Position numbers and translations under genes: made by a program | NCBI GenBank assembly: GCA_046075565.1 | Contig: JBJTQJ010000105.1 | Span: forward strand, 1-54,511 | Reading direction: 5' to 3' | Length of the DNA: 54,511 bases | From: Verrucomicrobiales bacterium | GTDB lineage: Bacteria > Verrucomicrobiota > Verrucomicrobiia > Verrucomicrobiales > SLCJ01 | Part shown: positions 24,452 through 51,032 of the stretch, piece after piece | How the letters are laid out: every line of letters starts with the position of its first letter | How positions within the stretch are numbered: the stretch's first letter is position 1 | Notes under the pieces: model-generated | Databases searched by the model: none | The model's input: the letters and a program-made list of their open reading frames with translations, nothing else | What the model was told of the DNA's origin: nothing

Positions 24452-25519
24452 CTACTTCTCCGCAGGGGCCTCGAGGGCTTCGATATGCAGGCGCACGGCT
24501 TCGGTCATGCCGCGTTCGCTGTAGCCGCCTTCGAGCAGCGAAACAATCCGTTCATGACCTTGTTCGCGGCAGAGGGAGCGCAGGATATGTGTGAGTTCGC
24601 CATAGACCTGACTCGACCAGCCGAGTTCGCCGAGTCGGTCCTCCTCATGTGCGTCGAAGCCGGCGGAGATGATGAGGAGTTGTGGTTTGAATTTGCGGAA
24701 GGCATCGGTCAGTTGGTTGCGAAATGCGTGAAGCACTGCGGCATCTCCGCTTCCGGCGGCCAGCGGCACGTTCAAGTTGAAACCTTTGCCCGCGCCCTCG
24801 CCGGTGATGTCCGGGGATCCGCTGGGACCGGGATAAAACGGGTATTGGTGGGTGGAGAAAAAGAACACGCTGGGATCCGCGAGGAAAACCGCCTGGGTGC
24901 CATCACCGTGGTGCACATCCCAATCCACGATCATCACACGTTCCAATTTATGCTGCTTTTGCGCGTAGCGGGCGGCGATGGCCGCATTGGAAAAGAAGCA
25001 GAAGCCCTTGGCTTTGTCGGGCATGGCATGATGGCCTGGTGGTCGCACGGCGGCGAATGCGTTGTTCACGCGTCCTTGCATCACTAAATCGACGGCGGTC
25101 AAGCAGCCGGCGGCCGCTGTTACCGACACGTCGTAAGTGTGTTTGGAAATCGGGGTGTCCTGATTTCCGTGCATCCGTTGTTCGCCTTTTGCACAAGCGT
25201 TTTTCAAGTTCGCCACGTAGTTGGCATCGTGAACTTTGAGGATCCATGGCAATGGATCCATCTTCTCGTCGGGAATGGTCCAGAGCAAGCGCTGGGAAAC
25301 TGGTTGGGCTTTGAGATGCGTGGTCAATCGGCGGAGGCGGTCCGGATTTTCCGGGAATCCCGGGCCGGTATCGTGGTCGAGGAATTTCTTATCGTAAATG
25401 ATGGCGGTGCGGAAGCTTTCCGGCTCGGGCCGCGAAGGCTCCGTTTGGGCCGACAAACAGGACAAGAAAAACGCGACGATAGCGAGGACGCGGTTGGTGA
25501 TACTTTGTTGGCTTTTCAT
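24452..25519 (-). CDS. Zn-dependent histone deacetylase family protein with putative signal peptide
   Basis: FPENPDRL, RPPGHHA, GFCFFSN, DWDVHHGDGTQ, SAGFDAH, LEGGY; likely start MKSQQ at 25519. Confidence 0.9.
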   Translation of the reverse strand: MKSQQSITNRVLAIVAFFLSCLSAQTEPSRPEPESFRTAIIYDKKFLDHDTGPGFPENPDRLRRLTTHLKAQPVSQRLLWTIPDEKMDPLPWILKVHDANYVANLKNACAKGEQRMHGNQDTPISKHTYDVSVTAAAGCLTAVDLVMQGRVNNAFAAVRPPGHHAMPDKAKGFCFFSNAAIAARYAQKQHKLERVMIVDWDVHHGDGTQAVFLADPSVFFFSTHQYPFYPGPSGSPDITGEGAGKGFNLNVPLAAGSGDAAVLHAFRNQLTDAFRKFKPQLLIISAGFDAHEEDRLGELGWSSQVYGELTHILRSLCREQGHERIVSLLEGGYSERGMTEAVRLHIEALEAPAEK

Positions 25520-25648
25520 GGTAATCCGAGAATCTGCGGACATGTTATTCATACGCTTCGGCGGGGGATTCGGGGATTCTCGGAATGAAGGAAGGGGAGG
25601 CAAGAGGTTTTTGCCATGCGGAAGAGATGATGTAGATTCCGGGGAAAC

Positions 25649-26506
25649 ATGGCCGTTTCCAGCAGCAATGCCCGCAGCATCACCCGTAAGGCGAAGAGCA
25701 ATCTCGCCTTCGCGTTGGGCAGTCTGCCGAGCGAGAGGCGAGGGGATATGGTCACATTTTATGCCTTCTGCCGACTGGTGGACGACATCGCGGATGACTC
25801 GGAGGTGCCGGTGAACCGCAGGGAAGCCTCGCTGCTGCTCTGGCGCGACGCGTTGTGCAGAGAGGTGCCCGGAGAGGATCCCTTGGCCAGCGAAGTGCGT
25901 TCCCTGGCGGCGAAATACCGGATTCCGATCGAACGGTTTGAAGAGATTCTGGAAGGAGTGACGCGGGATCTGCGGCCACAAACGTTTGGCACGGCCGAAG
26001 ATTTGGAGAAATACTGTCACCTTGTCGCCTCGGTGGTCGGGTTGGTGAGCATCGAAATATTCGGTTACAAGGATCCGGCCTGCCGCGACTATGCGCTTTC
26101 ATTGGGCCAGGCCTTGCAGTGGACGAATATCCTGCGCGACGTGGCCCAGGATGCAAAGGTGGGTAGGCTGTATTTGCCCTTGGCCGACCTGCATCGTTTT
26201 CAAATTACCGACGCGGAGGTGCTGGGCGGAACGATGGATGGTCGGTTCCGCGCCCTCATGGAACATGAATACCACCGGACCGAAGCCTACTTCCAGAAGG
26301 CGGTGGCGATTCTGCCGAAGCGGGATAGGAAATCCATGGTCGCGGCGGAGACCATGCGGAGGATCTATCACGCCTTGTTGCTGAAGATGCGGGCCGACGG
26401 ATTTCAAGTGTTCTCCAAACGATACCGTTTGGCCAAACCCCACATGCTATGGCTCCTGCTGGCCACGCGGCTTGGTTGGGAGCGGCGGGCAAGAAATTCG
26501 CGCTGA
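25649..26506 (+). CDS. Squalene/phytoene synthase family protein (HpnD-like)
   Basis: FYAFCRLVDDIADD, YCHLVASVVG, LGQALQWTNILRDV..D, GRLYLP. Confidence 0.9.
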   Translation: MAVSSSNARSITRKAKSNLAFALGSLPSERRGDMVTFYAFCRLVDDIADDSEVPVNRREASLLLWRDALCREVPGEDPLASEVRSLAAKYRIPIERFEEILEGVTRDLRPQTFGTAEDLEKYCHLVASVVGLVSIEIFGYKDPACRDYALSLGQALQWTNILRDVAQDAKVGRLYLPLADLHRFQITDAEVLGGTMDGRFRALMEHEYHRTEAYFQKAVAILPKRDRKSMVAAETMRRIYHALLLKMRADGFQVFSKRYRLAKPHMLWLLLATRLGWERRARNSR

Positions 26507-37593: not shown

Positions 37594-38919
37594 TTACCGC
37601 AACCAAAAGACGAGCCCCAGTGTGATCCCGCCGCAGAGGCTGGCCACGAAGGCCCGTCGGCGGCGGTGTCCTTTGGGTTCGGGCCCGAGATCCGGGCGGT
37701 GGTGGCGGGCATCAAACATGACCGGCCAAGCGAAGACAATCGCCACGAGGCAACCTAGAAATGTGGATTTTTCAGGCATCAACAGCATGGCGGGAACAAG
37801 AATGGCCGGCACGGTCTTGCCGAAAGCGAAACCAACCCTGAGATTCGGCAGGCCCAATTTCCGTCTCGTGCTGGCGTGCATCATAAATGATTGCGCGCCC
37901 AGAATCGTGGTATGGGCGGCAAATGCCGTGGATACCGTGAGTTTGCCGTGATGCAGGAGCACCAGCACTCCAAGCACCGGAACAGCGAGCAGAAAGATGG
38001 CGCCGGCGGCATGGCTCAATTCGACGCGGTCTTTGAGTTGGCTGGTCACCAGCACATGCAGGAGAAACAGGGCAATCGGCCCGGCGAGAAAGATGTAGCC
38101 GCCCCAAGCGAGGCAAGAGGCGCCATAGAGCAAAGCGGCGAGCAGCGCGCCGCCATTGAGCGACGACCATTTGCGGCAGAACCAGAGGATGGAAAACAGC
38201 ACGAAGAAAACGAAGGCGGACATGGCCCGCGCGTCCGAATTGCGGGTGTCGAGCTGATCGAGGATGAGGAACACACCCAGCGGCACCATGAGGTTGTCCC
38301 ATCCATCCCCGAGGATGCCTTCGATGGCGGTGGATAGCACGGCCACGCTCAGGGAAATCCAAATCACATCGCCCCGGCTGAGATCCGCGAAGTAGGTCAG
38401 GGGGCCCCAGGAACAGGCGAAGGCCACTGCGAAGAATAGAAACGATCCTTCGATGCTCTTGCGTCCTTTCCAAGCGAGGTAAGCGGTGTTGCCATGACGC
38501 GATCCATAGAGAGCGCTCAAGGCATCGGCGAGGGCCAGCACGAGAACAGGAATGAGAAAGAACTCTTTCCTTCCATCCGCGAGCACGAATACCGCCGCGA
38601 CCGCGAGAGGAAACATCAGTTCACCTGTCGATTGTCTTTCCACCCCATGGAGTGATGCGCCCATGCTCCCGCGCAGCGCGCGCAATCGCCGGATGACCAG
38701 CATCACCGTCAGCGCGAGCAGCCCGAGCAAAACCACCGGCAACGGACCGGAGAAGAGCCATGGAAATGGCAGGCAGAGCAAACCCATGCCGGTATGCACG
38801 GTCTTGCGCGCCAGTTCTGGACTGAGCTTTCCCCTGCGGGCGAGGCCGGAGGAAAAAAACAACAACGCAAACAGCAGCCCGCTGATCGCGACCATGGCCA
38901 TGACATCATGCACAGTCAT
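37594..38919 (-). CDS. Polyprenol/phytol kinase-like (cytidylyltransferase superfamily) membrane protein with C-terminal membrane extension
   Basis: ELARKTVHTGMG, LALADALSALYG, KSIEGS, GWDNLMVP. Confidence 0.8.
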   Translation of the reverse strand: MTVHDVMAMVAISGLLFALLFFSSGLARRGKLSPELARKTVHTGMGLLCLPFPWLFSGPLPVVLLGLLALTVMLVIRRLRALRGSMGASLHGVERQSTGELMFPLAVAAVFVLADGRKEFFLIPVLVLALADALSALYGSRHGNTAYLAWKGRKSIEGSFLFFAVAFACSWGPLTYFADLSRGDVIWISLSVAVLSTAIEGILGDGWDNLMVPLGVFLILDQLDTRNSDARAMSAFVFFVLFSILWFCRKWSSLNGGALLAALLYGASCLAWGGYIFLAGPIALFLLHVLVTSQLKDRVELSHAAGAIFLLAVPVLGVLVLLHHGKLTVSTAFAAHTTILGAQSFMMHASTRRKLGLPNLRVGFAFGKTVPAILVPAMLLMPEKSTFLGCLVAIVFAWPVMFDARHHRPDLGPEPKGHRRRRAFVASLCGGITLGLVFWLR

Positions 38920-40013
38920 CCGCGCACCTCCTCTAAGACGAAACGGCTGTAAAAGAACGCGCGATCCGTTTGGAAAAGGTCTCGGGCTTCTTCATCAAGG
39001 GGAGAAAGAATGTCTGCCAGCGCATCGGGACGGGAGCGCGGGGCGAGCATGTTCCAGTAGGCCAACCGTGCGCCGGGTTTGGCCATGGCCGCGAGACGGG
39101 CCAGCAAATCGCGGGTCGAGTCCTCGCTCATGTATTCAAAGATGTCGCTCAGGTTGAATCCATCGACCGGTGGAAGGCCCTGGACGTCTTCGATCGGGCA
39201 GCTATGGACGGTCAGACGGTTGGCCCGCAAGGCCTCGCGGATGGGTCCGAAAGCTTCAGGTAAAAAGGCCGGTGGCAGATGTCCGCCAAATGACCCGGTT
39301 AAGATCATCCGCAGCCATGGGTTCGACGATGGATCCAATTCGACGAGTGCGTGGCGCGTGCGTCCGAGGATCCGGGCGGCCACGCTGCCCTCGACGTAGC
39401 GGAAAAATTCCGGGTCGCGTCCTAGCAACCCCATGGTGAACCGGGAGAAAAAGACATTAAAAATGGCCCGCCAGCGCCAGTTGTTCCACTTCCCTTCGTA
39501 GAAAGCGGCACGCTCCTGCGGCGGGCGGGGTTGCAGCAGTTCGGCTACTCGTCGGCGGGAATGGGCGAGGGGAAGGACACGCTCGCGGAAAAGCCGGAAG
39601 TAGTTTTCAAACTTGCCCGCGTGGGCCGGACCATCTGCCTCCCAGCAGGCATGACCATCCCAGAACTCGCGAGCCTGTTCGTTGAGCCGTCCGCGCACCC
39701 TTTGGTAAAGCTCCTTTTTCCGTGTCGATGGTTGCAGTCCTAGCAGTTCCAGAAGTTCCTTATGTTCCGATTCCAACCAGGCGGCGATCCGCAGTTCGAT
39801 GCAGGCGATTTGGGTCGGGTTCAACTCGGCGATGGTCACGTGGCCGGCCCCGGCGGCGAGCAGGGCGAGGGCATTGTCGCCAGCCGACCCGATGCTCAGG
39901 TAATGACCACCGGGATGAGGACGCAGCCCGGCGATGAGCAGCGCTGGATCTTCCCAGCAAAGCGCATAACGCACTTGGTCGAATCGGGCGCGGCTTTGGA
40001 TCTCACTGGCCAT
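38916..40013 (-). CDS. DUF3419/BtaA-like SAM-dependent transferase
   Basis: RYALCWED, SIGSAGDN, GKFENYF, FNLSDIFEYM, LAYWN, DRAFFY; alternative start at 40046. Confidence 0.85.
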   Translation of the reverse strand: MASEIQSRARFDQVRYALCWEDPALLIAGLRPHPGGHYLSIGSAGDNALALLAAGAGHVTIAELNPTQIACIELRIAAWLESEHKELLELLGLQPSTRKKELYQRVRGRLNEQAREFWDGHACWEADGPAHAGKFENYFRLFRERVLPLAHSRRRVAELLQPRPPQERAAFYEGKWNNWRWRAIFNVFFSRFTMGLLGRDPEFFRYVEGSVAARILGRTRHALVELDPSSNPWLRMILTGSFGGHLPPAFLPEAFGPIREALRANRLTVHSCPIEDVQGLPPVDGFNLSDIFEYMSEDSTRDLLARLAAMAKPGARLAYWNMLAPRSRPDALADILSPLDEEARDLFQTDRAFFYSRFVLEEVRG

Positions 40014-42510
40014 CGCTTGGTCCTTCCGCACTGGAGTCCGCTTCATTTCGTCTCAGCAGGTTCACGAGGCCGCTCGCACCATCCATTTCCACTTCGTCGC
40101 CATCCCGGAGCCACGAACAGATTCCGGTGAGCCCGACGATACAAGGCAGACCGAGTTCTCGCGATACAATGGCGGAGTGGGAAAGCAGGCTGCCCTTCTC
40201 AACGAGCAGGCCGCTGGCAATGGGAAACAACATCACCCAACCGGGATCGGTCTGGCGTGCGACGAGGATTTCCCCCGGTTGGAGATTGGCCTCCCGCGGA
40301 TCGGTCACCACACGCGCGTGGCCGCGCACCACGCCCGGTGAGGCGCCCGTGCCGGTCATGCTATTTCCTTTCGGTGTAATCTGCTCTGTTAGGACTTTTG
40401 AGGTGGTCATCGCCTTCGTGTTGCGGTGCAGCGGACCACGGGTGGTAAACCGATCCGGAGGAGCGGGTTCGGCGCGGAAACGCTCGAATTCCGCGCGGCG
40501 GACGCGAACGAGGGTGGCGGCGTCTTGGGTCGAGGTCGTGCCATCCAGCAGGCCGAGTGCTTCCTCCGCTTCGAGATAAAAGATGTCGTCGGGTGACTCA
40601 AGTCGTTGATCGGCCGCGAAGCGGCGGCCGAGTTCACGGAAGATGGAGCGCACGTGCCCGAACAGCCGGGTCCGTTCGAAGCGCAAGTTCTCGCGGTCGC
40701 GCACGCGCCGGGCGGCCAATCCGGCCATCCAGCGGAAGATGGTGCGTTTCATGGGATTGCGCACTCGCGCGGCGAGGGCAACAACTGGGTTTGCCGCTGC
40801 TCGAATTCCGGAATCCTCTTTGGTTTTCACCGGAGAGCTCTGGGGATTCGCGGCCCGGGCGAGGACGGCATTCCATAACAAGGTGGCGTCATCACGTAAG
40901 GTCGGGCTCTCCAGTTTCAGTTCCTCCAGGCAGCGGTCGCCGAAACGCTCGAGGTAGTTGTCCCATGCCTCGCGGAAACCGGGCACGCTCGCGATGGCAT
41001 GGCGGGGCGTGCGAGCATCCGGTCCGTGCACAGGGTAGACATTGGCGCTCAGCAGGTCGCCCATGGCGCGGATGGCGATGGCGGGTTCGGCACTGATGAT
41101 GCCGCCCTGATCGACGAGCAGGGTATTTTGTGCGGTCCCGCTTTCATCCCCGGCCCACGACTTGCACCAGGAACGCAGCACGCCATAGGTGATCATCGCG
41201 AAGAAATCATTGACCAGCGGAGCATCCCAGCGGCGAAGGAGTTTGTCCTCGAGCCCCCGGTAGTGCCGGGCCAGATCCTCCGCGCTCAAACCCGCGAGCG
41301 GCTTATCGAGATGCAGGGCATTGTCGAGACGGGCGAGAAATTCCTGTTTCATGCCCGGGAGGGCGAACGCCTGGCGGATGATGCCCGTGATGCCACGCAC
41401 GACGGCGATGCGATCCTGCCATGGAGAAACCGTCGCCTCCGCGATGACCCGCGCGACCAACTCATCCGGCAGCGGTTCTTTCACTCCCATCATTTGTTCC
41501 ATGAACGAACGATTCAGGGTAAATCCCGGAAGGAGGGCGAGCACACGATACCAGGAAAGGAGATTGTAATACACGCGACCATGAACAAGGCCGAGCATCT
41601 TTGGAAAAACCTCCTCGCCCCGCGCGAGCCCTGCCTTCGTGACGCCGAGGATGGCGCAGAATTCCCGATAGACGTGTTCGTAGGCCTTGCGGGCGAAGCT
41701 GAAGGTCAGGGGTGTGGTCACGCCGCCATAACTCTCCACGATATTGCTGTTATCCCAGACACAGGGACTGTCATCGGGGTCGGGTAGGTCGCCGAGGGTG
41801 GTGATGGGGCGCGATTGCAGCAGCCAGAGTTTGCCGGTGTCGTCAATGGCCCACTCAATGTCCTGCGGGATGCCGAAGTGCTTCTCGCAACTCCGGGCGA
41901 GCGCGGCTACTGCGAGAACATCCTTCGTATCGAGACAGGGAGATTTGTCTGCCATGGCGAGGTTGTTGATCTCGGCATCGGTAGTGACTTCCCATGAATC
42001 GGCATTGCTCTCACCCGAGACAAGGGCTTCCCCGAGACCGGGCACGGCGGACACGATGGTGCGGGCACGGCGTCCATGGATCACATCGGCGCTGAAAGCA
42101 ACGCCGGCCGCGCGGGCACGCACCATCGGTTGGATGATGGCCGCGGGGATGGCGGATTCGATGCCGCGTGATTCGGTGTAAGCGCGCATGGCCGGACCCT
42201 CTGCGGAGGCGCGCACGTCCGCGACTGCGGCTTGCAGGTCTTCTTTGCTCACGCTGAGCACGGAGCGGAATTGTCCGGCGAAAGAATGGGCGCTGCCATC
42301 TTCGACGACGGCCGAGGACCGCACGGCGTAGGGACCGGGTCCGAGGGCTTCAGCGCGGATTTCCAATCCTGCGATGGGCCATGGTTCATCCGGCGAGACC
42401 ACGACAAACGGAGGCACATCGAAGGGACCGTCTCCCAAGCGTCCGAGCGCCCGGGCTTTGCCGCCTACGCTGGGATGATGTGCCGCTTGTTGGGAGTCGA
42501 GGATTGGCAT
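40003..42510 (-). CDS. PEP-utilising enzyme with rifampicin phosphotransferase/PigC-like domain order
   Basis: VGGKA, AVRSSAVVEDG..SFAGQF, PQDIEWA, LLQSRPIT; C-terminal TDPGW and GSLLSHSAIVSRELG; start MPILDS at 42510. Confidence 0.88.
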   Translation of the reverse strand: MPILDSQQAAHHPSVGGKARALGRLGDGPFDVPPFVVVSPDEPWPIAGLEIRAEALGPGPYAVRSSAVVEDGSAHSFAGQFRSVLSVSKEDLQAAVADVRASAEGPAMRAYTESRGIESAIPAAIIQPMVRARAAGVAFSADVIHGRRARTIVSAVPGLGEALVSGESNADSWEVTTDAEINNLAMADKSPCLDTKDVLAVAALARSCEKHFGIPQDIEWAIDDTGKLWLLQSRPITTLGDLPDPDDSPCVWDNSNIVESYGGVTTPLTFSFARKAYEHVYREFCAILGVTKAGLARGEEVFPKMLGLVHGRVYYNLLSWYRVLALLPGFTLNRSFMEQMMGVKEPLPDELVARVIAEATVSPWQDRIAVVRGITGIIRQAFALPGMKQEFLARLDNALHLDKPLAGLSAEDLARHYRGLEDKLLRRWDAPLVNDFFAMITYGVLRSWCKSWAGDESGTAQNTLLVDQGGIISAEPAIAIRAMGDLLSANVYPVHGPDARTPRHAIASVPGFREAWDNYLERFGDRCLEELKLESPTLRDDATLLWNAVLARAANPQSSPVKTKEDSGIRAAANPVVALAARVRNPMKRTIFRWMAGLAARRVRDRENLRFERTRLFGHVRSIFRELGRRFAADQRLESPDDIFYLEAEEALGLLDGTTSTQDAATLVRVRRAEFERFRAEPAPPDRFTTRGPLHRNTKAMTTSKVLTEQITPKGNSMTGTGASPGVVRGHARVVTDPREANLQPGEILVARQTDPGWVMLFPIASGLLVEKGSLLSHSAIVSRELGLPCIVGLTGICSWLRDGDEVEMDGASGLVNLLRRNEADSSAEGPSDGQ

Positions 42511-42544
42511 GGCTAAGTGTAGCCCGCCTTTCAGATGACAAATT

Positions 42545-42573
42545 CTGATTTTTTGAAAAAACCGAAAAATCAG
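42545..42573. promoter_or_regulatory. AT-rich inverted repeat inside the five-gene cluster
   Basis: CTGATTTTT (42545-42553)/AAAAATCAG (42565-42573). Confidence 0.35.
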
Positions 42574-42756
42574 CCGCTTCGCGGGATTGTTTTGCAGTAG
42601 GACGGGTCTTTTTCCCGATTCCGGCGTTGCTCGCCCGCCTTCGCTCTTCGAGCTATGGCGGACAAGTCGGTTGCGAATGCCAATTCGCGCCCTCCTCGCG
42701 CCTTGGACTCGAAAAAATTCCTCGTCCATAATTTGCCATCTGCTCGGCGGACCACA

Positions 42757-43668
42757 CTACGGATGAAGCAACCACCAGGCCAAGGGACCGAGGGAAAGAT
42801 AGAGCACGAGTGTCCACAAACCTGCGAGAAGTTCGAGGCGTTTGCCTTGGATGCGGGCATCGAGCATGGGCAGCGAAAGCAGAACCAAGGCAATCCACGC
42901 GACGCCCAGAATCGCCGCGATGGGCAGGGCGAAGCCGATGGAGATGGCGGCCACGGTGGCGAAGATCACCACTGCCAACGAGCATCCCCACCAGGCGAAT
43001 AAGGCGTGCCGTCGGCCCCAGAGCACGCTGTAAGTTTCGACTCCGGTTTCCTCGTCCTCGGGTCGCCGGATCTTGCGCCCGATTTCGATGACGAGTCCGT
43101 TGGCATAACTGGCGGCAAGGAACCAGAGCAGTCCAAGTCCCGGATGCGCGCCCGTTGGCATCCATTGACAGGCGGTCGCGAACAAATCCACCAGCGGCAT
43201 GATAAACATGTGCGTCCACATGTAGGTGATGGGCCGGGCCTTGAGCAAATCGCGGGCGAAGAACTCGACACTCATCAGTGCGAGATAAACCCACGCGACC
43301 ACAAGCACGATGACCAGCAGGGGATGCCGCCACCAGGCGAGGGTGAATTGAATAGCGGCGGCGAACACGAATAACAAACCGAGTTCGCGCAATGTCACCA
43401 GTCCGCGCGGCACGGCGCGATAAGGACGAAATTTGCGATCCTCTTCCACATCCTTGAATTCATCCGCGATACGGAGTTGCAGGAAAAACAGGAAACACAC
43501 GCCGAAGGCGACGGCGAACGCAGACGGGGCGATGCTCCATTGTTTGGTCAACACGGCGCTATAGGCGAGCGCGCTCGCGCTGAAAGCGGCAACGAGCGGA
43601 CCGTGGCCGAAGATCGGAAACCGTTCGGCCTGATAGGTCCACCACTTGCGGAAAAATCCGGGCGTCAT
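42757..43668 (-). CDS. UbiA prenyltransferase-like membrane protein
   Basis: LRIADEFKDVEED, RAVPRGLV, EIGRKI, ETYS; multiple TM helices; ATGA overlap with HMG-CoA reductase stop. Confidence 0.8.
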   Translation of the reverse strand: MTPGFFRKWWTYQAERFPIFGHGPLVAAFSASALAYSAVLTKQWSIAPSAFAVAFGVCFLFFLQLRIADEFKDVEEDRKFRPYRAVPRGLVTLRELGLLFVFAAAIQFTLAWWRHPLLVIVLVVAWVYLALMSVEFFARDLLKARPITYMWTHMFIMPLVDLFATACQWMPTGAHPGLGLLWFLAASYANGLVIEIGRKIRRPEDEETGVETYSVLWGRRHALFAWWGCSLAVVIFATVAAISIGFALPIAAILGVAWIALVLLSLPMLDARIQGKRLELLAGLWTLVLYLSLGPLAWWLLHP

Positions 43669-44945
43669 GTCGAGAGACCGATCGAGCGGGTGCGGGCGAG
43701 TTTGCGGTGGGCGCGGGTGAATTCCCCGGCCGCGAGCGCACCGATGATGGAAAGTTCGCCCGCGAGCAACAATCCGGCGCAGACTTCGGCGAAGGCGCGT
43801 GCATGGCCCTCGCCGGCCAAGCCCATGAGTTCGAGGCAGGCTCGTTGACCGGGAAGTCCGGTGCCTCCACCAACGGTCCCGACCATGATGCCGGGCAGGG
43901 TTACGGCGGCATAAAGTGAACCATCCGTCCTCGCTTCGAAACGAGTGATACCGATGGCGGACTCGGCCACGCAGGCGACATCCTGCCCGGTGGCCAGATA
44001 GAGCGCGGCCAGACCGTTCGCGAAGTGACCTTGCACGCCAATCGTGCCGCTGAGCACGCCTCCGAGCGCGGAGACCCTCCAATACTCCTCGAGCGCACTT
44101 GCGGGGACATGGAGGACCTTTTCAAGCAATGGCCCGGGCAATAACACCTCGGCGGTAACTTTTTTCCCGCGCGTCGAAACGAAGGCGCGCGCGCTCGCCT
44201 TTTTATCGCCCGACATGTTGCCTTCGGTGTAGCTGGCGACTGCCTTGATCGGACAGTGGTTGGTCAGGTAGTCACAGGCCGCCTGGGCGGCCATCGTCAC
44301 CATGTTCTGGCCGGAGGCATCGCCTGTCAGGAATTCCAGGCCCAGATAAATGTGGTTGCCTTCGAGCGTTGGCAGCACGTCGCGGAGTCGGACGTGGCGT
44401 CCTGTTTCTTCGGCGGCCGCTTTGATTTCCTCGAGGTGTTCCAAGGTCCAACAGAGAAAACGGCCGGCCTCCGCAAGGTTGTCGAAAAGAAAAACCGGCA
44501 CCCGCGACAGCGCCTCGCGCACGAGGATGGCCGTGCAACCACCCGCCTCGCCGATGAGCACGGAACCGCGATGGTAACTCGCCACGAGGGCCGCTTCCGT
44601 GGTTGCCAGCGGAATGAAGTAATCACCTCGGGCGTGTAATCCGCGCACGCGCAGCGGCCCCGCGATACCGATGGGCACACGCACGGTGCCGATGCAGTTC
44701 TCGATATTGCGGGCGTAACATTCCAGCGCGTCCACAGCGCCGCTCTCGAGCAGGGCAGGGGAGGGATCGAGTCCCATGGACTTCCAGAGGCGCCGGGCGG
44801 AGGATTCATCGGCCCGGGTGGATGGACGAAGTCCGCGGTAGGTTCCCGCCGTTGGCCCAAGGGACGCCGCTACTTCCTCGGGCGTTCGTCCGGCCAATGC
44901 CGCGCGCGCGTCCTCCCGGAATTGTTCCTGTTTTCCGCCATGCAT
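43665..44945 (-). CDS. Class I hydroxymethylglutaryl-CoA reductase
   Basis: IENCIG, PLATTEAALVAS, GDASGQNM, GNMSGDKK, ATGQD, GTVGGGT, AGELS; start uncertain (44945 or 44993). Confidence 0.88.
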   Translation of the reverse strand: MHGGKQEQFREDARAALAGRTPEEVAASLGPTAGTYRGLRPSTRADESSARRLWKSMGLDPSPALLESGAVDALECYARNIENCIGTVRVPIGIAGPLRVRGLHARGDYFIPLATTEAALVASYHRGSVLIGEAGGCTAILVREALSRVPVFLFDNLAEAGRFLCWTLEHLEEIKAAAEETGRHVRLRDVLPTLEGNHIYLGLEFLTGDASGQNMVTMAAQAACDYLTNHCPIKAVASYTEGNMSGDKKASARAFVSTRGKKVTAEVLLPGPLLEKVLHVPASALEEYWRVSALGGVLSGTIGVQGHFANGLAALYLATGQDVACVAESAIGITRFEARTDGSLYAAVTLPGIMVGTVGGGTGLPGQRACLELMGLAGEGHARAFAEVCAGLLLAGELSIIGALAAGEFTRAHRKLARTRSIGLST

Positions 44946-45039
44946 GAAACCACCGTAAAGTTGCGCGGGAGACTTGCCAACATGGAAACACAAAGCGATT
45001 GGTGTTTCAGATGCAGCATAAACCTTGAAAGGAAAATGG

Positions 45040-46523: not shown

Positions 46524-47108
46524 ATGATCCGGGAAATCGTGACATACGGCGATCCAGTGCTGCGGGAGAAATGCCCGCCGGTCGGGGAGATCACCGAGAC
46601 CATCCGGACTCTGGCCGCGGACATGGTCGATACCATGCGGGCGGCTGATGGCGTGGGTCTGGCCGCTCCCCAGATCGGGGTCGCGCTGCAACTCGCGGTG
46701 GTCGATATCTCCCATGCTCCGGAGAGCATCAGCTACTTGAAAGTCGATGGGCAGGACACGGCTCTCGATGCGATCATGCCCCTGATTTTCGTGAACCCGA
46801 AACTCGAATTCGGCGGCACGCGGGAGAGCGAAAGCGAGGGCTGCCTCAGTATCCCAGAAATCCGCGGTAATGTGGACCGTCCGGTGGAGGTGCAAGCGAC
46901 CCTGACCCTGCTGGACGGGCGGACCATCACAGTGGAAACCGACGGACTCCTCGCACGCGCCTTGCAGCATGAGGCCGACCACCTCCACGGCGTCCTTTTC
47001 ACCGACCGGATCAGTTCCGCCGCGAAGGTGAGGATGCGGATCGTCCTCAAAAGATTGCTCGCGGAACAAGGGCCGCGCCGGTATCTGCCGAGACCGGGGA
47101 TGGAGTGA
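46524..47108 (+). CDS. def: Peptide deformylase
   Basis: GVGLAAPQIG, EGCLSIP, QHEADHLHG. Confidence 0.96.
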   Translation: MIREIVTYGDPVLREKCPPVGEITETIRTLAADMVDTMRAADGVGLAAPQIGVALQLAVVDISHAPESISYLKVDGQDTALDAIMPLIFVNPKLEFGGTRESESEGCLSIPEIRGNVDRPVEVQATLTLLDGRTITVETDGLLARALQHEADHLHGVLFTDRISSAAKVRMRIVLKRLLAEQGPRRYLPRPGME

Positions 47109-47199
47109 GTCGGGGCGATGCGGCCATGAGTATGGAGTCCCGCACAGTTCAGATCGAGACAGTCTGACTACAGACTTGAGGTGGGCCGGACCATCGGCA

Positions 47200-47435
47200 G
47201 GCAGGGACCGCTGTCCCAGCGGTCCGGGAGATCGTGGGGAGAACGAAAGTGCGAAGGCGTGGCGGTTCCACCTCCGCGGAGGTTTGAGGACAAACGTCCC
47301 TGCCTTTGTCTGTTGGACGAAGGCGACGATGGGCGATGGCTGCCCGCAAGGGTCCGACCATAGAGAATCGACGCGACCGACCAAATGACGGGCAGGGACC
47401 GCTGTCCCCAGCGGTCCGTGAGATCGTGGGGAGAA
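47200..47435. repeat. REP/REPIN-like cluster
   Basis: 44/45-bp direct repeats at 47200-47243 and 47391-47435 (GGCAGGGACCGCTGTCCC(C)AGCGGTCCG...), with an inverted variant at 47277-47304. Confidence 0.75.
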
Positions 47436-47625
47436 TGTGATCGCCAATGCATGGCGGCTCAAATGCCCGGCACCGGAAGCGGTGCCGCTACAGGGAGGTC
47501 TTGATGGTGTCGCGGAACGCCTTCGCGTTCCCGGGGGTGTGCCTCCGGCAGCCTGCCCAATCCTTGTGTTATGATCGCGTAATGCCTGCAAATTCGCTCG
47601 CCAAACCATCGGTCCTCGTGCCAAA

Positions 47626-50484
47626 GTGCAGGATATGGATCGGCAGATCGATTGGGAGTCCCTGATTCCTCCGGGCGGACGTGTTTTCCTTGGTTCGGGT
47701 GCGGCGACCCCGCAGGCCTTGGTGCGTTCGATGCTCGACGCGGCCCCTGTTCTCAAGGATGTGGAAATCATCCATATCCATACCCTCGGGGAATCTCCAT
47801 GGGTGGACCCGCGCTTCGATGGTATCCTGCGCACGAACACATTTTTCCTCACTCCGACCATCCGCGCGGCTGTCGATGCCGGGCGCGCCGACTACACGCC
47901 TTGTTCTCTCTCGGAAGTCGCCGGGTTGTTCGCGCCGGGATTGCTGCCGATCGACACGGCTTTGGTAATGACAAGTCCTCCCGATGAGGAGGGATTTGTC
48001 AGTCTCGGAGTGGCGGTCGATGTGACCATCGCGGCGGTGCGGCAGGCGAGAAAAGTGGTGGCACAGATCAATCCGCTTTTGCCGCGCACGGACGGGGAGG
48101 CGCGTTGGCCGATGGGAAAAATCGACGCATTCATCGAGCAAAGCCAGGAACTTCCGGAGTTGCCGCCGCCGGAACCCGATCCCATCCGCAGCCGCATCGC
48201 GGCCTATGTGGCGGAATGTATCGAGGATGGCAGCACACTGCAGATCGGCCTCGGTGTCACGGCCCGTTCGGTTTCCGCCGCTTTGCGAGGGCATCGTCAT
48301 CTCGGCATCCATACCGGCATGCTGACCGACGGATTGATCGATCTCATCCGCGCCGGGGTGGTGGATAACAGCCGCAAGGGGTTGCACAACGGTGTGAGTG
48401 TTTGCAGTCACGTGCTCGGGACGCGTCATGTCTACGACTTTGTCGATGGCAACTCCCTCGTCGAATTCCATGGCAGTGCCTACGTGAACCATCCCGCCAC
48501 GGTGGCCCGACTACACCGTATGGTCGCCATCAACGGGGCGCGGCAAATGGATCTAACAGGCCAGGTGGTTCGTGATTCGCGTGGACATCATTTCCATGGC
48601 GGGGTGGGGGCTTCGCTCGATTTCGCGCGGGGCGCGGCCATGGCCCCGCACGGCCGGCCGATCATCGTCCTGCCCTCGACCAGCGCCGATGGCAAAAAAT
48701 CCCGTATCGTCGCCAACCTCTCACCCGGCACCGGCATCGCGACCGGGCGCACCGACGTGCACACCGTGGTGACGGAGCACGGCATCGCACGATTGCACGG
48801 GCGCAGCATCCGTGAACGGGTGATGGAACTCATCCAGATTGCCCATCCCGATTTCCGGGAAGATCTGCTCCGCGAGGCCCGCCACTGGGGCTGGGTGCCG
48901 AAACTGTTTTCCATGCCGCCCTCGTCGTTGCGCGACGGCACCGGACAAGGAGGCATTGAATCGAGAAAGGTCCGTCTGTTAGGCAAATCCTTCGGCCTGC
49001 GCCCGCTCCATCCTTCCGACATGCGGCGGCTCCAGGAATTCTTCTACTCCCATGATCCGGAGACGGTGCGTCTGCGTTACGGCTACAGTCGCGACAGCAT
49101 GCCCGCCGAGAGCGCCTACAAACTCGTGGCCGTCGATCAAAACCGCGATCTCGCCCTCACCATCACCGAGGAATTGGCCGAAGGCGAGGTGCTGCGCGCC
49201 ATCGGACGGTATTACCTCGACGATGATGGAAAATCCGCCGAAGTCGCTTTTGTCGTGCACGAGGAATTCCGCAGGCACGGCATGGGTTCGGTGCTACTGG
49301 AGGAATTGGCCCGCATTGCACGGGCACGCGGCATCAAATCATTCTGGGCGAGCGTGCTCGTCCGCAACCGGACCATGGCCGGTCTTTTCCTCAAACATGG
49401 CGCGGTCGTCTCTGCAGGTGATGATGTTTCGTCAAAACTCCACACCCTTGATGTCGCGGAAATCCTCACGCGTGCGGATGCCCGCGCCGCCGGATCAAAA
49501 GTTTCACGTGCCGACTCCGCGGAAGGACCGGCTGTGGCCGTGGGTGTTGTTTTTGACGGCGTTTTCGAAAAACACGACACCGGGCCCGGTCATCCCGAAT
49601 CAGCGCAACGATACCGCGCCGTTTGGGAAACCCTGCGGCGCATGAATGATGAGGAAAGCGTCATTGCCCTGCCGGTGAAAGAGGCCACGATCGAGGATCT
49701 CCAGCTTTGCCACGAGCCGCATTACATCGACATCGTGCGTTTGGATGTAGAAAGCCTCGCCGATCAACTCCGCACCGGCGACGTGGTGATCAGCGAGGAT
49801 TCATGGCACATCGGGCGACTCGCGGCAGGAAGTTGCATCGCGGCCACTGATGCCGTGATCGACGGGCGTGTGCGCCGCGCCTTCTGCGCAGTGCGTCCGC
49901 CGGGACACCACGCCAGTCCCGCGCGGGGCATGGGATTCTGTCTCTTCAACAATGTGGCCATCGCGGCCCGTCATGCCCTGCGTCGCCGTGGCCTGAAGCG
50001 CGCTCTCATCTTCGACTGGGACGTGCATCACGGCAACGGCACCCAGGATGTCCTCGAAGCCGATCCGGATGTCTATTTCTTCTCCTCCCACCAGTGGCCG
50101 CTGTATCCCGGCACCGGTGCGGCGAGCGAACGCGGGACCGGTCCCGGAATCGGCACCACCTTCAATCTCCCGCTCAAGGAAGGCACGGGAGTGGAAGCGG
50201 TGTTTGCGGTGATGGATGGTCCGCTCGCCGCCGCCATGGAGGAATTCCGCCCCGAGATCGTTTTTATCTCCGCCGGTTTCGACGCCCGGGTCGATGATCC
50301 GCTGGGTGGACTGAATTGGACCGATGATGATTTCGCAGCCCTCACGGATCGGTTGGTCGCATTGGCGGAGAAATATGCCTCCGGCCGTGTGGTCAGTGTG
50401 CTTGAAGGCGGTTACAACCCTTCCGGTCTCGCCAGTGCCGTGGAAACCCACGTGCGACGGCTCATGGTTTCCTCCTCCCTTTGA
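47626..50484 (+). CDS. Three-domain fusion: acetyl-CoA hydrolase/transferase-like + GNAT + HDAC-family deacetylase
   Basis: N: GRADYTP, SLGVAVD, LQIGLG, DLTGQV, DFARGA, VVTEHGIA; middle: LRPLHPSD, AEVAFVV..FRRHGMG; C: HPESAQRY, RPPGHHA, DWDVHHGNGTQ, SAGFDA, LEGGY. Confidence 0.9.
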   Translation: MQDMDRQIDWESLIPPGGRVFLGSGAATPQALVRSMLDAAPVLKDVEIIHIHTLGESPWVDPRFDGILRTNTFFLTPTIRAAVDAGRADYTPCSLSEVAGLFAPGLLPIDTALVMTSPPDEEGFVSLGVAVDVTIAAVRQARKVVAQINPLLPRTDGEARWPMGKIDAFIEQSQELPELPPPEPDPIRSRIAAYVAECIEDGSTLQIGLGVTARSVSAALRGHRHLGIHTGMLTDGLIDLIRAGVVDNSRKGLHNGVSVCSHVLGTRHVYDFVDGNSLVEFHGSAYVNHPATVARLHRMVAINGARQMDLTGQVVRDSRGHHFHGGVGASLDFARGAAMAPHGRPIIVLPSTSADGKKSRIVANLSPGTGIATGRTDVHTVVTEHGIARLHGRSIRERVMELIQIAHPDFREDLLREARHWGWVPKLFSMPPSSLRDGTGQGGIESRKVRLLGKSFGLRPLHPSDMRRLQEFFYSHDPETVRLRYGYSRDSMPAESAYKLVAVDQNRDLALTITEELAEGEVLRAIGRYYLDDDGKSAEVAFVVHEEFRRHGMGSVLLEELARIARARGIKSFWASVLVRNRTMAGLFLKHGAVVSAGDDVSSKLHTLDVAEILTRADARAAGSKVSRADSAEGPAVAVGVVFDGVFEKHDTGPGHPESAQRYRAVWETLRRMNDEESVIALPVKEATIEDLQLCHEPHYIDIVRLDVESLADQLRTGDVVISEDSWHIGRLAAGSCIAATDAVIDGRVRRAFCAVRPPGHHASPARGMGFCLFNNVAIAARHALRRRGLKRALIFDWDVHHGNGTQDVLEADPDVYFFSSHQWPLYPGTGAASERGTGPGIGTTFNLPLKEGTGVEAVFAVMDGPLAAAMEEFRPEIVFISAGFDARVDDPLGGLNWTDDDFAALTDRLVALAEKYASGRVVSVLEGGYNPSGLASAVETHVRRLMVSSSL

Positions 50485-50519
50485 CAAGACCGCGCGTCTG
50501 CCGGACCTTTGCCACCATC

Positions 50520-51032
50520 ATGGCCAGTATCACCGCCCGCGTTTGCGAAGATATCGATTGGGATTCGTGGAATCCAACGATCCTCGCGACCTTGTTGTTC
50601 ATCATCCATGAAGGACGGGTTCTGCTCATGGAAAAAAAACGCGGGCTCGGCGAAGGGAAAATCAATGGCCCCGGAGGGAAAATCGATCCGGGGGAATCCG
50701 CGATGGAATGCGCGATCCGCGAAACCCAGGAAGAACTGCATGTCACTGCCCATGATCCCGAACCCGCGGGTGAGTTGCGTTTCCAGTTTGTCGACGGACT
50801 CTCCATCCGGTGCCATGTCTTCCGGGCGACGAGTTTTTCCGGCACCCCGACCGAGACGGAGGAGGGGAAACCTTTCTGGTTCGATCTGGATGCCATCCCT
50901 TATGAGCGCATGTGGCAGGATGACTTCCACTGGCTTCCCATCGTGCTCGAAGGAGGATGCTTTTTGGGCGAATTCATTTTCGATGGCGACACCATGCTCG
51001 ACCATCGTGTGGACATCCGCCCGAGTGTTTAG
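50520..51032 (+). CDS. NUDIX hydrolase (8-oxo-dGTP diphosphatase, MTH1-like)
   Basis: KKRGLGEGKINGPGGKID, Nudix box CAIRETQEE, PYERMWQDD. Confidence 0.88.
   Translation: MASITARVCEDIDWDSWNPTILATLLFIIHEGRVLLMEKKRGLGEGKINGPGGKIDPGESAMECAIRETQEELHVTAHDPEPAGELRFQFVDGLSIRCHVFRATSFSGTPTETEEGKPFWFDLDAIPYERMWQDDFHWLPIVLEGGCFLGEFIFDGDTMLDHRVDIRPSV

Follow-up and report, generated by a model that had tools for sequence, protein, structure and literature searches.

One gene, at positions 47626..50484 of a 54,511-nucleotide stretch of DNA from a Verrucomicrobiales bacterium (assembly GCA_046075565.1, contig JBJTQJ010000105.1, positions 1 to 54,511 of the forward strand; the window, hereafter, means this whole stretch), encodes a chain in which a coenzyme A (CoA) transferase-like domain, predicted to be catalytically dead, precedes a Pat-type GNAT acetyltransferase domain and a zinc-dependent deacetylase domain of the HDAC family. 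To our judgement there is about an even chance that this protein constitutes a single-chain module for reversible lysine acetylation, in which the dead CoA-transferase domain would take the part played in Pat by a dead acyl-CoA-synthetase domain.

The regulation of lysine acetyltransferases and deacetylases is still poorly understood in bacteria, and the two best-studied cases (Pat/CobB and AcuA/AcuB/AcuC) are built of separate proteins. A writer, an eraser and a degenerate CoA-handling domain within one chain would offer a compact and testable model of how the acyl-CoA pool could set the acetylation state.

The fused gene and its occurrence

The listing of open reading frames (ORFs) and their translation gave a single frame on the plus strand, 952 amino acids long, opened by a GTG and free of internal stops. 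The ATG at 47635 (codon 4) is a more probable start than the GTG, because the homologues begin at the aligned position (MKPL.. against MDRQ..) and because the 92%-identical relative P0002 has 949 residues. Pfam matches were found for AcetylCoA_hydro at residues 13-167 (3.6e-20) and AcetylCoA_hyd_C at 265-418 (5e-54), for GNAT families at 458-593 (Acetyltransf_1, 1.5e-09; Acetyltransf_3, 1e-07) and for Hist_deacetyl at 656-945 (PF00850, 1.4e-88), the latter in full length (profile positions 1-297 of 298); the mycobacterial Pat model of NCBIfam matches residues 453-600 (8.9e-17). Chance is ruled out for these matches by their E-values. The AlphaFold2 model of the whole chain has a mean predicted local distance difference test score (pLDDT) of 86.0. 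A first interpretation made from the letters (the sequence-only reading) had described one uninterrupted 952-residue frame with approximate boundaries at residues 1-425, 450-610 and 640-950, a CoA-transferase-like region, a Pat-like GNAT and an HDAC domain with intact metal and catalytic motifs, all of which is borne out by the frame, the Pfam domains, the Pat match and the presence of RPPGHH, DWDVHH, SAGFDA and EGGY. The features of the gene, all on the plus strand, are as follows.

47626..50484, +, whole gene, 952 amino acids from the GTG; probable true start at the ATG at 47635 (949 amino acids) (ORF call, homologue starts)
47662..48879, +, 4-hydroxybutyrate-CoA-transferase-like domain, residues 13-418, predicted catalytically dead (Pfam; PDB 9vag, 2oas and 3gk7; Foldseek)
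48316..48318, +, codon GGC for Gly231, where CoA-transferases have their nucleophilic Glu (aligned with 9vag, 2oas and 3gk7)
48595..48636, +, degenerate GxGGQxDF loop, residues 324-337, HGGVGASLDFARGA (alignment; pLDDT 59 for block 321-330)
48919..48951, +, linker 1, residues 432-442, with low model confidence and little conservation (alignment, model)
48997..49404, +, Pat-like GNAT acetyltransferase domain, residues 458-593, with AEVAF (E539) and RRHGMG (motif A) (Pfam, NCBIfam, alignment)
49498..49530, +, linker 2, residues 625-635, after a long helix (610-633), with low confidence and little conservation (alignment, model)
49591..50460, +, Zn-dependent deacetylase domain (HDAC class II, HdaH-like), residues 656-945, with RPPGHH, DWDVHH, SAGFDA, the PLG gatekeeper and EGGY (Pfam, alignments, Foldseek)

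The same architecture recurs in many other sequences. In a word-indexed protein search 8000 candidates were scored, giving 668 matches, of which 120 were listed; these and the query form the family set of 121 sequences. Among the matches listed and the query, 80 of 121 sequences have at least 880 residues and all three domains, with 45-92% identity (79 clusters beyond the query), and the other 41, of 611-685 residues, have no HDAC domain. Three-domain sequences with a named source, among the matches listed, belong to Verrucomicrobiota (Haloferula, Rubritalea, Coraliomargarita, Akkermansiaceae, Chthoniobacterales and Puniceicoccaceae/Opitutae), and one three-domain database row under the name of an isopod is flagged UNVERIFIED_CONTAM. 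The database names of the family are generic ('GNAT family N-acetyltransferase', 'AcuC-like/acyl-CoA hydrolase/RimJ'). The presence of the family in cultured Verrucomicrobiota (Haloferula, Rubritalea, Coraliomargarita) makes experiments feasible.

Of 301 sampled genomes of the phylum, three (G000, G057 and G096) have the fused gene in one frame, and the 22 of them that belong to one genus (g2) gave no match to the gene. Furthermore, an exhaustive search covered 1.84 billion cluster representatives, the best 150 of which were inspected: two of these have three domains (P0023, 53% identical, and P0139) and 72 have two. P0139, with 1013 residues and 33% identity, has its three domains confirmed by Pfam and carries Asp at the position of the nucleophile.

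The stretch is also contained in four freshwater-metagenome runs of one study (X1 to X4). A contig of 2645 nucleotides from X1, which may be the source sample, spans 47400-50041 with 0 differences. The junction between the CoA-transferase and GNAT domains is crossed by short contigs of X3 and X4 (48831-49055 and 48907-49057), and the linker between the GNAT and HDAC domains by contigs of X2 and X3 (49461-49649 and 49492-49752). In X3 there is a C>T variant at 48318, which is synonymous (Gly231 codon).

An assembly or frameshift error joining separate genes was weighed against these data. The stretch comes from a metagenome-type assembly, the run contigs break at about 50008-50048, at the DWDVHHGNG motif common to the HDACs of many organisms (depth there 116-342), and one relative, G294, shows the gene as two overlapping frames, all of which would speak for such an artefact. 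Against it stand the at least 79 further clusters of at least 880 residues from many sources, including isolate genomes (Haloferula, Rubritalea, Coraliomargarita), the fused genes of G057 and G096, and the run contigs: the sequence-only reading had called for reads across both junctions, and the contigs of the four runs cover both, with no insertions or deletions listed. The artefact, in a single genome or otherwise, is refuted for practical purposes, and its remaining probability is negligible.

A predicted dead CoA-transferase domain and conserved catalytic motifs

The N-terminal domain is closest to solved 4-hydroxybutyrate CoA-transferases (9vag, 1.8e-110; 2oas, 9.4e-99; 3gk7, 9.8e-89). 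The Foldseek search with the model returned 2oas, a CoA complex, with a template-modelling (TM) score of 0.91 and a root-mean-square deviation of 2.1 Å, and 3gk7 with a TM score of 0.89; the domain has the two-lobed acetyl-CoA hydrolase/transferase fold (PF02550 and PF13336). The HTGM of the query aligns with HTEM, HTEL and HSEM in 9vag, 2oas and 3gk7, so that Gly231 takes the place of the Glu (E238 in 3gk7 numbering), which we take to be the nucleophile carrying the acyl and CoA intermediates. Gly231 is found in all 121 family sequences, none of which has the catalytic Glu of the CoA-transferase family. The GxGGQxDF loop is equally altered, the query reading GVGASLDF (GGQxDF to GASLDF), with Ala or Ser at position 329 of the family and a variable residue at 330; and the score against the NCBIfam equivalog for butyryl-CoA:acetate CoA-transferase (TIGR03948) is 179.2 bits, against a cut-off of 674.8. 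Because nucleophile, loop and cut-offs all fail, the domain is, as far as its sequence can tell, not one of the CoA-transferase enzymes; it is a pseudoenzyme, predicted to be catalytically dead.

The domain has lost its chemistry but stays constrained. Across 47 three-domain members 121 positions are invariant, about 58 of them in the CoA-transferase domain, and Q313, R316, D317, G326, G328, D332, F333, R335 and G336 are invariant in these members. The invariant residues, together with the kept fold, point to a retained non-catalytic function, probably as sensor or scaffold: most likely the domain still binds something or someone. The likeness to the regulatory domain of Pat, drawn in the sequence-only reading, is thus apt, since the position of the nucleophile Glu is Gly231 throughout the family.

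Within the GNAT domain, the Glu of AEVAF (E539), R549 and G552 are each invariant in 121/121 sequences. E539 is presumably the catalytic general base, which in MtPat and SePat is a Glu in strand beta-4. Motif A, which PMC8556138 defines for GNATs as R/Q-x-x-G-x-G/A, is present as RRHGMG, the mark of the GNAT fold. The NCBIfam Pat model NF058543 is matched by 47/47 three-domain members at about residues 453-600 (best 6.4e-19), and rimI and ArsN1 by 2/47 and 1/47; every Pat score lies below the full-length cut-off of that model (460 bits), which also covers a cyclic nucleotide (cNMP) domain. Pat is the closest GNAT family and the only one matched by all 47. No GNAT chain appears among the matches listed in the Foldseek search with the whole model, and Pfam finds no ATP-grasp_5 or CoA_binding_2 in the protein, which has the CoA-transferase-like domain instead. 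The GNAT domain looks catalytically competent, as a prediction from these residues.

The HDAC domain retains, in alignment with HDAC6 CD2, H761, H762, D799, H801 and D886 in 80/80 three-domain members and Y930 in 79/80. We take H761/H762 to be the His-His dyad, the Asp-His-Asp set the zinc ligands and Y930 the catalytic Tyr. RPP (R757, P758, P759) is found in 80/80 and xGGY (E927, G928, G929, Y930) in 79/80 members, two motifs that have been tied to robust deacetylases rather than to long-chain deacylases (Graf et al. 2024, PMC11532494). Among solved chains the closest are Burkholderia 5ji5 (220.8 bits, TM score 0.91), HDAC6 CD2 (185.8 bits in two-domain chains and 189 bits in CD2-only chains) and HDAH (about 183 bits), with acetylpolyamine amidohydrolase 3men at 119.8 bits. 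The gatekeeper x of the P-x-G motif tells these enzymes apart: the polyamine deacetylase HDAC10 has Glu there, HDAC6 CD1 has Lys, the bacterial polyamine deacetylases have Ile (PIS), and the other human HDACs have Leu or Met (Hai et al. 2017, PMC5454378; PMC11532494). The query reads PLG, and the 80 members have Leu (55), Met (11), Ile (9) or Val (5), never Glu or Lys; by the criterion of the same two papers, a hydrophobic gatekeeper indicates a lysine-deacetylase state. The domain looks catalytically competent and is predicted to be of the class-II/HdaH type. It had been foreseen that the bifunctional reading would fail if one of the two opposing domains were inactive; judged by their conserved catalytic residues, neither looks inactive.

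Relatives, split forms and the HDAC tree

The loss of the nucleophile can be followed among relatives without the HDAC domain. Sixteen CoA-transferase-GNAT genes were cut from the phylum sample and compared with the query (17 in all). Gly stands at the nucleophile position in the query, G057, G096, G081 and G294, and Glu is kept in 12/17, the more distant two-domain genes of families f11, f19, f22, f28, f46 and f50, six of which (in f22, f28, f46 and f50) also keep GGQxDF. In the 72 two-domain representatives among the best 150, where the residue was read from pairwise BLAST columns, Glu was found 41 times, Asp 13 times and another residue 18 times. From these alignments, the loss to Gly is specific to one clade, more distant two-domain relatives keeping Glu, and the CoA-transferase-GNAT fusion is a large family in which, because of the mixture of Glu, Asp and other residues, the transferase chemistry is judged to have been given up repeatedly. 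Versions that look active (Glu) coexist in related lineages with dead ones (Gly, Asp and others), so that the transition from enzyme to pseudoenzyme can be studied here.

Two further proteins of 960-967 residues, P0135 and P0136, have an N-terminal extension of about 350 residues with matches to 4Fe-4S dicluster families before the CoA-transferase-GNAT part, and Val or Gln at the nucleophile position.

The surroundings of some two-domain genes are also of interest. In 4/4 loci of families f28 and f46 (G020, G056, G146 and G140), a gene for an ADP-forming acyl-CoA synthetase lies directly upstream of the two-domain gene; the two genes possibly form an operon, with the GNAT either controlling the synthetase or being fed by it. 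A gene of the LOG or 'possible lysine decarboxylase' family (PF03641) lies within about 1 kb downstream of the two-domain gene in 4/4 loci of family f11.

L123 10304-12538, L124 6244-8349, L125 9960-12095 and L126 9854-11953: ADP-forming acyl-CoA synthetase genes, about 700 amino acids, with ASSHTGSLAG, beside a CoA-transferase(Glu)-GNAT gene
L120 4762-5607, L121 7352-8206, L122 7234-8103 and L119 6454-7413: LOG-family genes, directly adjacent in three loci, with one ORF in between in the other

The idea that these synthetases are dead pieces resembling that of Pat, raised by the absence of GH[ASTC]G, was rejected on finding ASSHTGSLAG, which we take to be the phospho-His motif of the ADP-forming acyl-CoA synthetases (ACD).

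In several genomes the eraser has a gene of its own, translationally coupled to that of the writer. The two-domain gene and a gene for a 311-residue HDAC overlap by 4 nucleotides in G081, and likewise in L001 and in the Luteolibacter metagenome-assembled genome (MAG) L013; in G289 the overlap is of 1 nucleotide. In G294 (L116 8328-11124), whose genome is one contig of 5.4 Mb, two frames overlap by 218 nucleotides within the GNAT; this looks, from its sequence, like a frameshifted fused gene, whether by frameshift, through an error in sequencing or as a pseudogene. Many genomes carry the two-domain gene at one place and the nearest HDAC gene at another, unlinked to it. A scan of genome contigs was dominated by the HDAC word IFDWDVHH, and most of the loci that it listed hold stand-alone HDACs, from Nitrospinota, Microvirga and others; the relevant ones among them were L001, L013, L006 and L039.

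A maximum-likelihood tree was built from 52 hand-picked HDAC domains: 22 fused (20 from stored proteins, with G057 and G096), 5 adjacent, 11 from genomes with a two-domain gene elsewhere, 5 stand-alone from the phylum, the paralogue of the window and 8 others. One clade (25 rows, support 100/97) takes in every fused domain but that of P0139, as well as the adjacent domains of L001, L013, G081 and G294; its sister group (99/92) contains stand-alone HDACs from the phylum and from a Bryobacteraceae MAG. The split forms nest inside the fused clade (100/100) and so probably arose by secondary fission. The HDACs of P0139 and of the G289 gene pair lie far from the main clade, on long branches whose exact place is unsure; their branching elsewhere suggests that the fused or adjacent association arose more than once, P0139 possibly being an independent fusion. 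This repeated linkage of the parts, like the acyl-CoA synthetase gene beside the two-domain genes of f28 and f46, is counted in favour of an acetylation module.

The window itself holds a second HDAC gene (24452-26020, minus strand), a frame of 522 residues with a Pfam match (3.3e-94) at residues 223-516. Its domain is 40% identical to the fused one and in the tree lies outside the fused clade, and the 220 residues before it have no Pfam or NCBIfam match.

Proposed function, alternatives and genomic context

In the mechanism that we propose, the Pat-type GNAT would be the writer and the class-II/HdaH-type zinc HDAC the eraser, both carried on a dead N-terminal domain of the 4-hydroxybutyrate/butyryl-CoA-transferase fold. 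The pseudo-CoA-transferase would bind CoA or acyl-CoA, and perhaps a carboxylate, and this binding would bias the chain toward writing or erasing, so that the acetylation of acetyl-CoA synthetase or other targets would follow the acyl-CoA pool, substrate and target being presumed to be shared by the two activities. With both activities in one chain, a futile cycle would become controllable and the stoichiometry would be fixed at 1:1. A stricter form would have the N-terminal domain read the acyl-CoA:CoA ratio, or acetate or 4-hydroxybutyrate in the old substrate site, the ligand turning the GNAT on and the HDAC off, as in AceK or GlnE. Such reciprocal gating by a ligand is regarded as possible but doubtful. 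The protein would then be, tentatively, the first switch, gated by a ligand, to unite writer and eraser of lysine acetylation in a single polypeptide; an equally speculative step would make it a sixth regulatory type among bacterial GNATs, with an active CoA-transferase-GNAT enzyme as its ancestor. The bifunctional acylation switch of the sequence-only reading is, on this evidence, a reasonable inference and not a finding.

Opposing activities on one polypeptide, allowing reciprocal control by metabolites, are known from AceK, GlnD, GlnE and HPrK/P. These act with phosphoryl, uridylyl or adenylyl groups, unlike the present protein, for which reciprocal control is hypothesised.

Among acetylation systems, Pat/PatZ (YfiQ) with CobB of Salmonella and E. 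coli also joins a Pat-type GNAT to a large dead relative of a CoA-handling enzyme. The inactive acyl-CoA-synthetase domain of type I and II GNATs binds acetyl-CoA, and in Pat/PatZ it drives oligomerisation and activity (PMC8556138). The regulatory domain here is, however, of the class-I CoA-transferase fold (Glu to Gly), whereas that of Pat is an NDP-forming (nucleoside-diphosphate-forming) acyl-CoA synthetase that has lost its His, and erasing would fall to a zinc HDAC within the chain, where Pat/CobB has a separate sirtuin. Because of this different regulatory domain, the protein is outside all five published GNAT types: the five-type classification, in the portion of PMC8556138 at hand, has no CoA-transferase type and 0 occurrences of 'CoA-transferase', so that the CoA-transferase-like domain is a type of regulatory domain absent from it.

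In Bacillus subtilis, AcuA and AcuC likewise are a GNAT writer and a zinc HDAC-type eraser encoded together and acting on AcsA, tuned by a third, non-catalytic, ligand-sensing part, AcuB (PMC13039410, PMC13121692). They are three separate proteins, though, and the AcuB sensor consists of CBS and ACT domains and reads diadenosine tetraphosphate (Ap4A) or energy charge (PMC13039410). AcuC is placed in sub-cluster 2c by Graf et al. (PMC11532494), whereas the fused HDAC is nearest to HDAC6, 5ji5 and HDAH among solved relatives. By analogy with these systems, the protein might work as a Pat with a deacetylase attached, or as an AcuABC system united in a single chain.

The closest single-domain relatives of the N-terminal part, the 4-hydroxybutyrate/butyryl-CoA:acetate CoA-transferases (AbfT 3gk7, 2oas, 9vag, RipA), share 32-42% identity and TM scores of 0.88-0.91 over this domain, but differ in the change of Glu to Gly, the degenerate GGQ loop, the bit score (179 against 675) and the two further domains present here. 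The two-domain CoA-transferase-GNAT proteins (about 600-650 residues) have the same N-terminal domain and GNAT, often beside an HDAC or acyl-CoA synthetase gene, but the catalytic Glu is kept in many of them (41/72), and the locus has the HDAC as a separate gene or lacks it. In the literature as far as accessible, neither a CoA-transferase-GNAT nor a GNAT-HDAC fusion was found described; the supplementary cluster tables of Graf et al. may list such proteins.

As to the target, the genome of the window (marker completeness 100%) encodes one AcsA that passes the curated cut-off, at 986.7 bits. Its C-terminal end, PKTRSGKIMRR, carries the lysine of the PxxxxGK acetylation motif, as does the classical Pat/CobB target Acs. 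No type-I Pat or ACD-type ATP-grasp_5 protein was found in this genome (best match 44.6 bits). AcsA is a candidate target by precedent.

Several observations weigh against this interpretation. The overall predicted TM score of the model (0.58) gives no reliable arrangement of the domains, and the loop 321-330 of the dead domain is modelled at low confidence (pLDDT 59). The role of E539 as catalytic base is presumed from the Pat enzymes and from its invariance. The Glu-keeping two-domain relatives may be CoA-transferase enzymes, in which case a sensor role would be derived and not general. The genome also encodes one sirtuin and a second, stand-alone HDAC, so that the fused eraser is in principle not needed for the control of Acs. 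Furthermore, no target gene is linked to the fused gene, the neighbours of which differ in G057, G096, G081 and G294. Finally, the Ile gatekeeper of 9/80 members resembles the PIS motif of bacterial polyamine deacetylases.

The best of the other explanations, although unlikely, is that the dead CoA-transferase domain serves for dimerisation or as a scaffold only, without ligand sensing, the GNAT and HDAC being regulated otherwise or not at all. It is the largest and best-modelled part of the protein, and the nucleophile position holds 10 different residues across the two-domain representatives (31/72 not Glu), as would be expected where no chemistry takes place; a pure scaffold, on the other hand, would have no need for the invariant residues around the former active site (from Q313 to G336, listed above).

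Rather unlikely as well is a self-resetting acetyltransferase, in which the HDAC would remove autoacetylation from the chain's own lysines, setting its oligomeric or active state instead of erasing marks on other proteins. Acetyl-CoA binding and autoacetylation drive the oligomerisation and activity of E. coli PatZ/YfiQ (reviews including PMC8556138), covalent fusion favours action in cis, and the lack of a linked gene for a shared target fits. The split forms, however, have separate HDAC genes working in trans, and many genomes have their nearest HDAC unlinked to the two-domain gene.

Of still lower probability is a cycle on a small molecule, with the GNAT and HDAC acting on a polyamine, an amino acid or another amine metabolite and not on protein lysines. 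Both families include small-molecule enzymes, HDAC10 and the cluster-4 ApaH being polyamine deacetylases (PMC5454378, PMC11532494), and the Ile gatekeepers and the LOG or 'lysine decarboxylase' family gene downstream in 4/4 f11 loci would agree with it. But the gatekeeper is Leu or Met in 66/80 members and never Glu, HDAC6 CD2, 5ji5 and HDAH score 184-221 bits against 120 bits for the acetylpolyamine amidohydrolase 3men, the sole GNAT family matched by all members (47/47) is the protein acetyltransferase Pat, and joining the two activities on a free metabolite would amount to a plain futile cycle.

An acetyl-CoA relief valve, in which the GNAT loads a lysine and the HDAC hydrolyses it, the net acetyl-CoA hydrolase freeing CoA in replacement of the lost chemistry, would follow from the two chemistries and recall the name of the parent family (acetyl-CoA hydrolase/transferase), but it is very improbable, being without precedent, energetically wasteful and with nothing specific in its favour.

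With regard to genomic context, the fused gene lies between def and lexA upstream and NUDIX, ThuA-like, argA-like and trpF genes downstream. The ORFs of the compared loci came from a simple ORF caller. In 16 loci examined for a conserved neighbour or target beside the fused and adjacent genes, no gene beyond the HDAC is common to those of the Gly clade, and no acyl-CoA ligase gene stands beside the fused gene here or in the 7 closest loci examined. The immediate neighbour is the following.

50481..51032, +, NUDIX hydrolase gene, the longest frame of which overlaps the stop of the fusion gene (ORF call, NCBIfam)

This gene has weak MutT-like NCBIfam matches (42 bits) and is absent beside the fused genes of G057 and G096; it is possibly co-transcribed, but is not conserved as a neighbour, and any link with the fusion is doubtful. 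Ap4A has been linked to the control of the deacetylase AcuC (PMC13039410, 2026). A nucleotide hydrolase as neighbour is worth a thought in this light, although nothing ties the two together here.

Upstream of the gene, Rfam gave nothing in 46900-47800, a promoter scan gave 0 sites, and terminator-like sites were not above those of shuffled sequences. Two copies of a palindromic repeat of about 45 nucleotides are found there, at 47199-47243 and 47391-47436, with the core GGGACCGCTGTCCCAGCGGTCC. A 61-nucleotide query around the first copy had 33 matches across the genome contigs, and by its look the repeat is a dispersed element like the repetitive extragenic palindromic (REP) ones. The contig depth in X1 rises to 128 at 47400-47510, with several contigs branching at that place.

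Further away, at 37594-44993 on the minus strand, a run of genes encodes an unassigned membrane protein, a DUF3419 protein, a PEP-utilising (phosphoenolpyruvate-utilising), PPDK-like protein of 908 residues, a UbiA prenyltransferase and an HMG-CoA (3-hydroxy-3-methylglutaryl-CoA) reductase, and may be an isoprenoid or lipid cluster.

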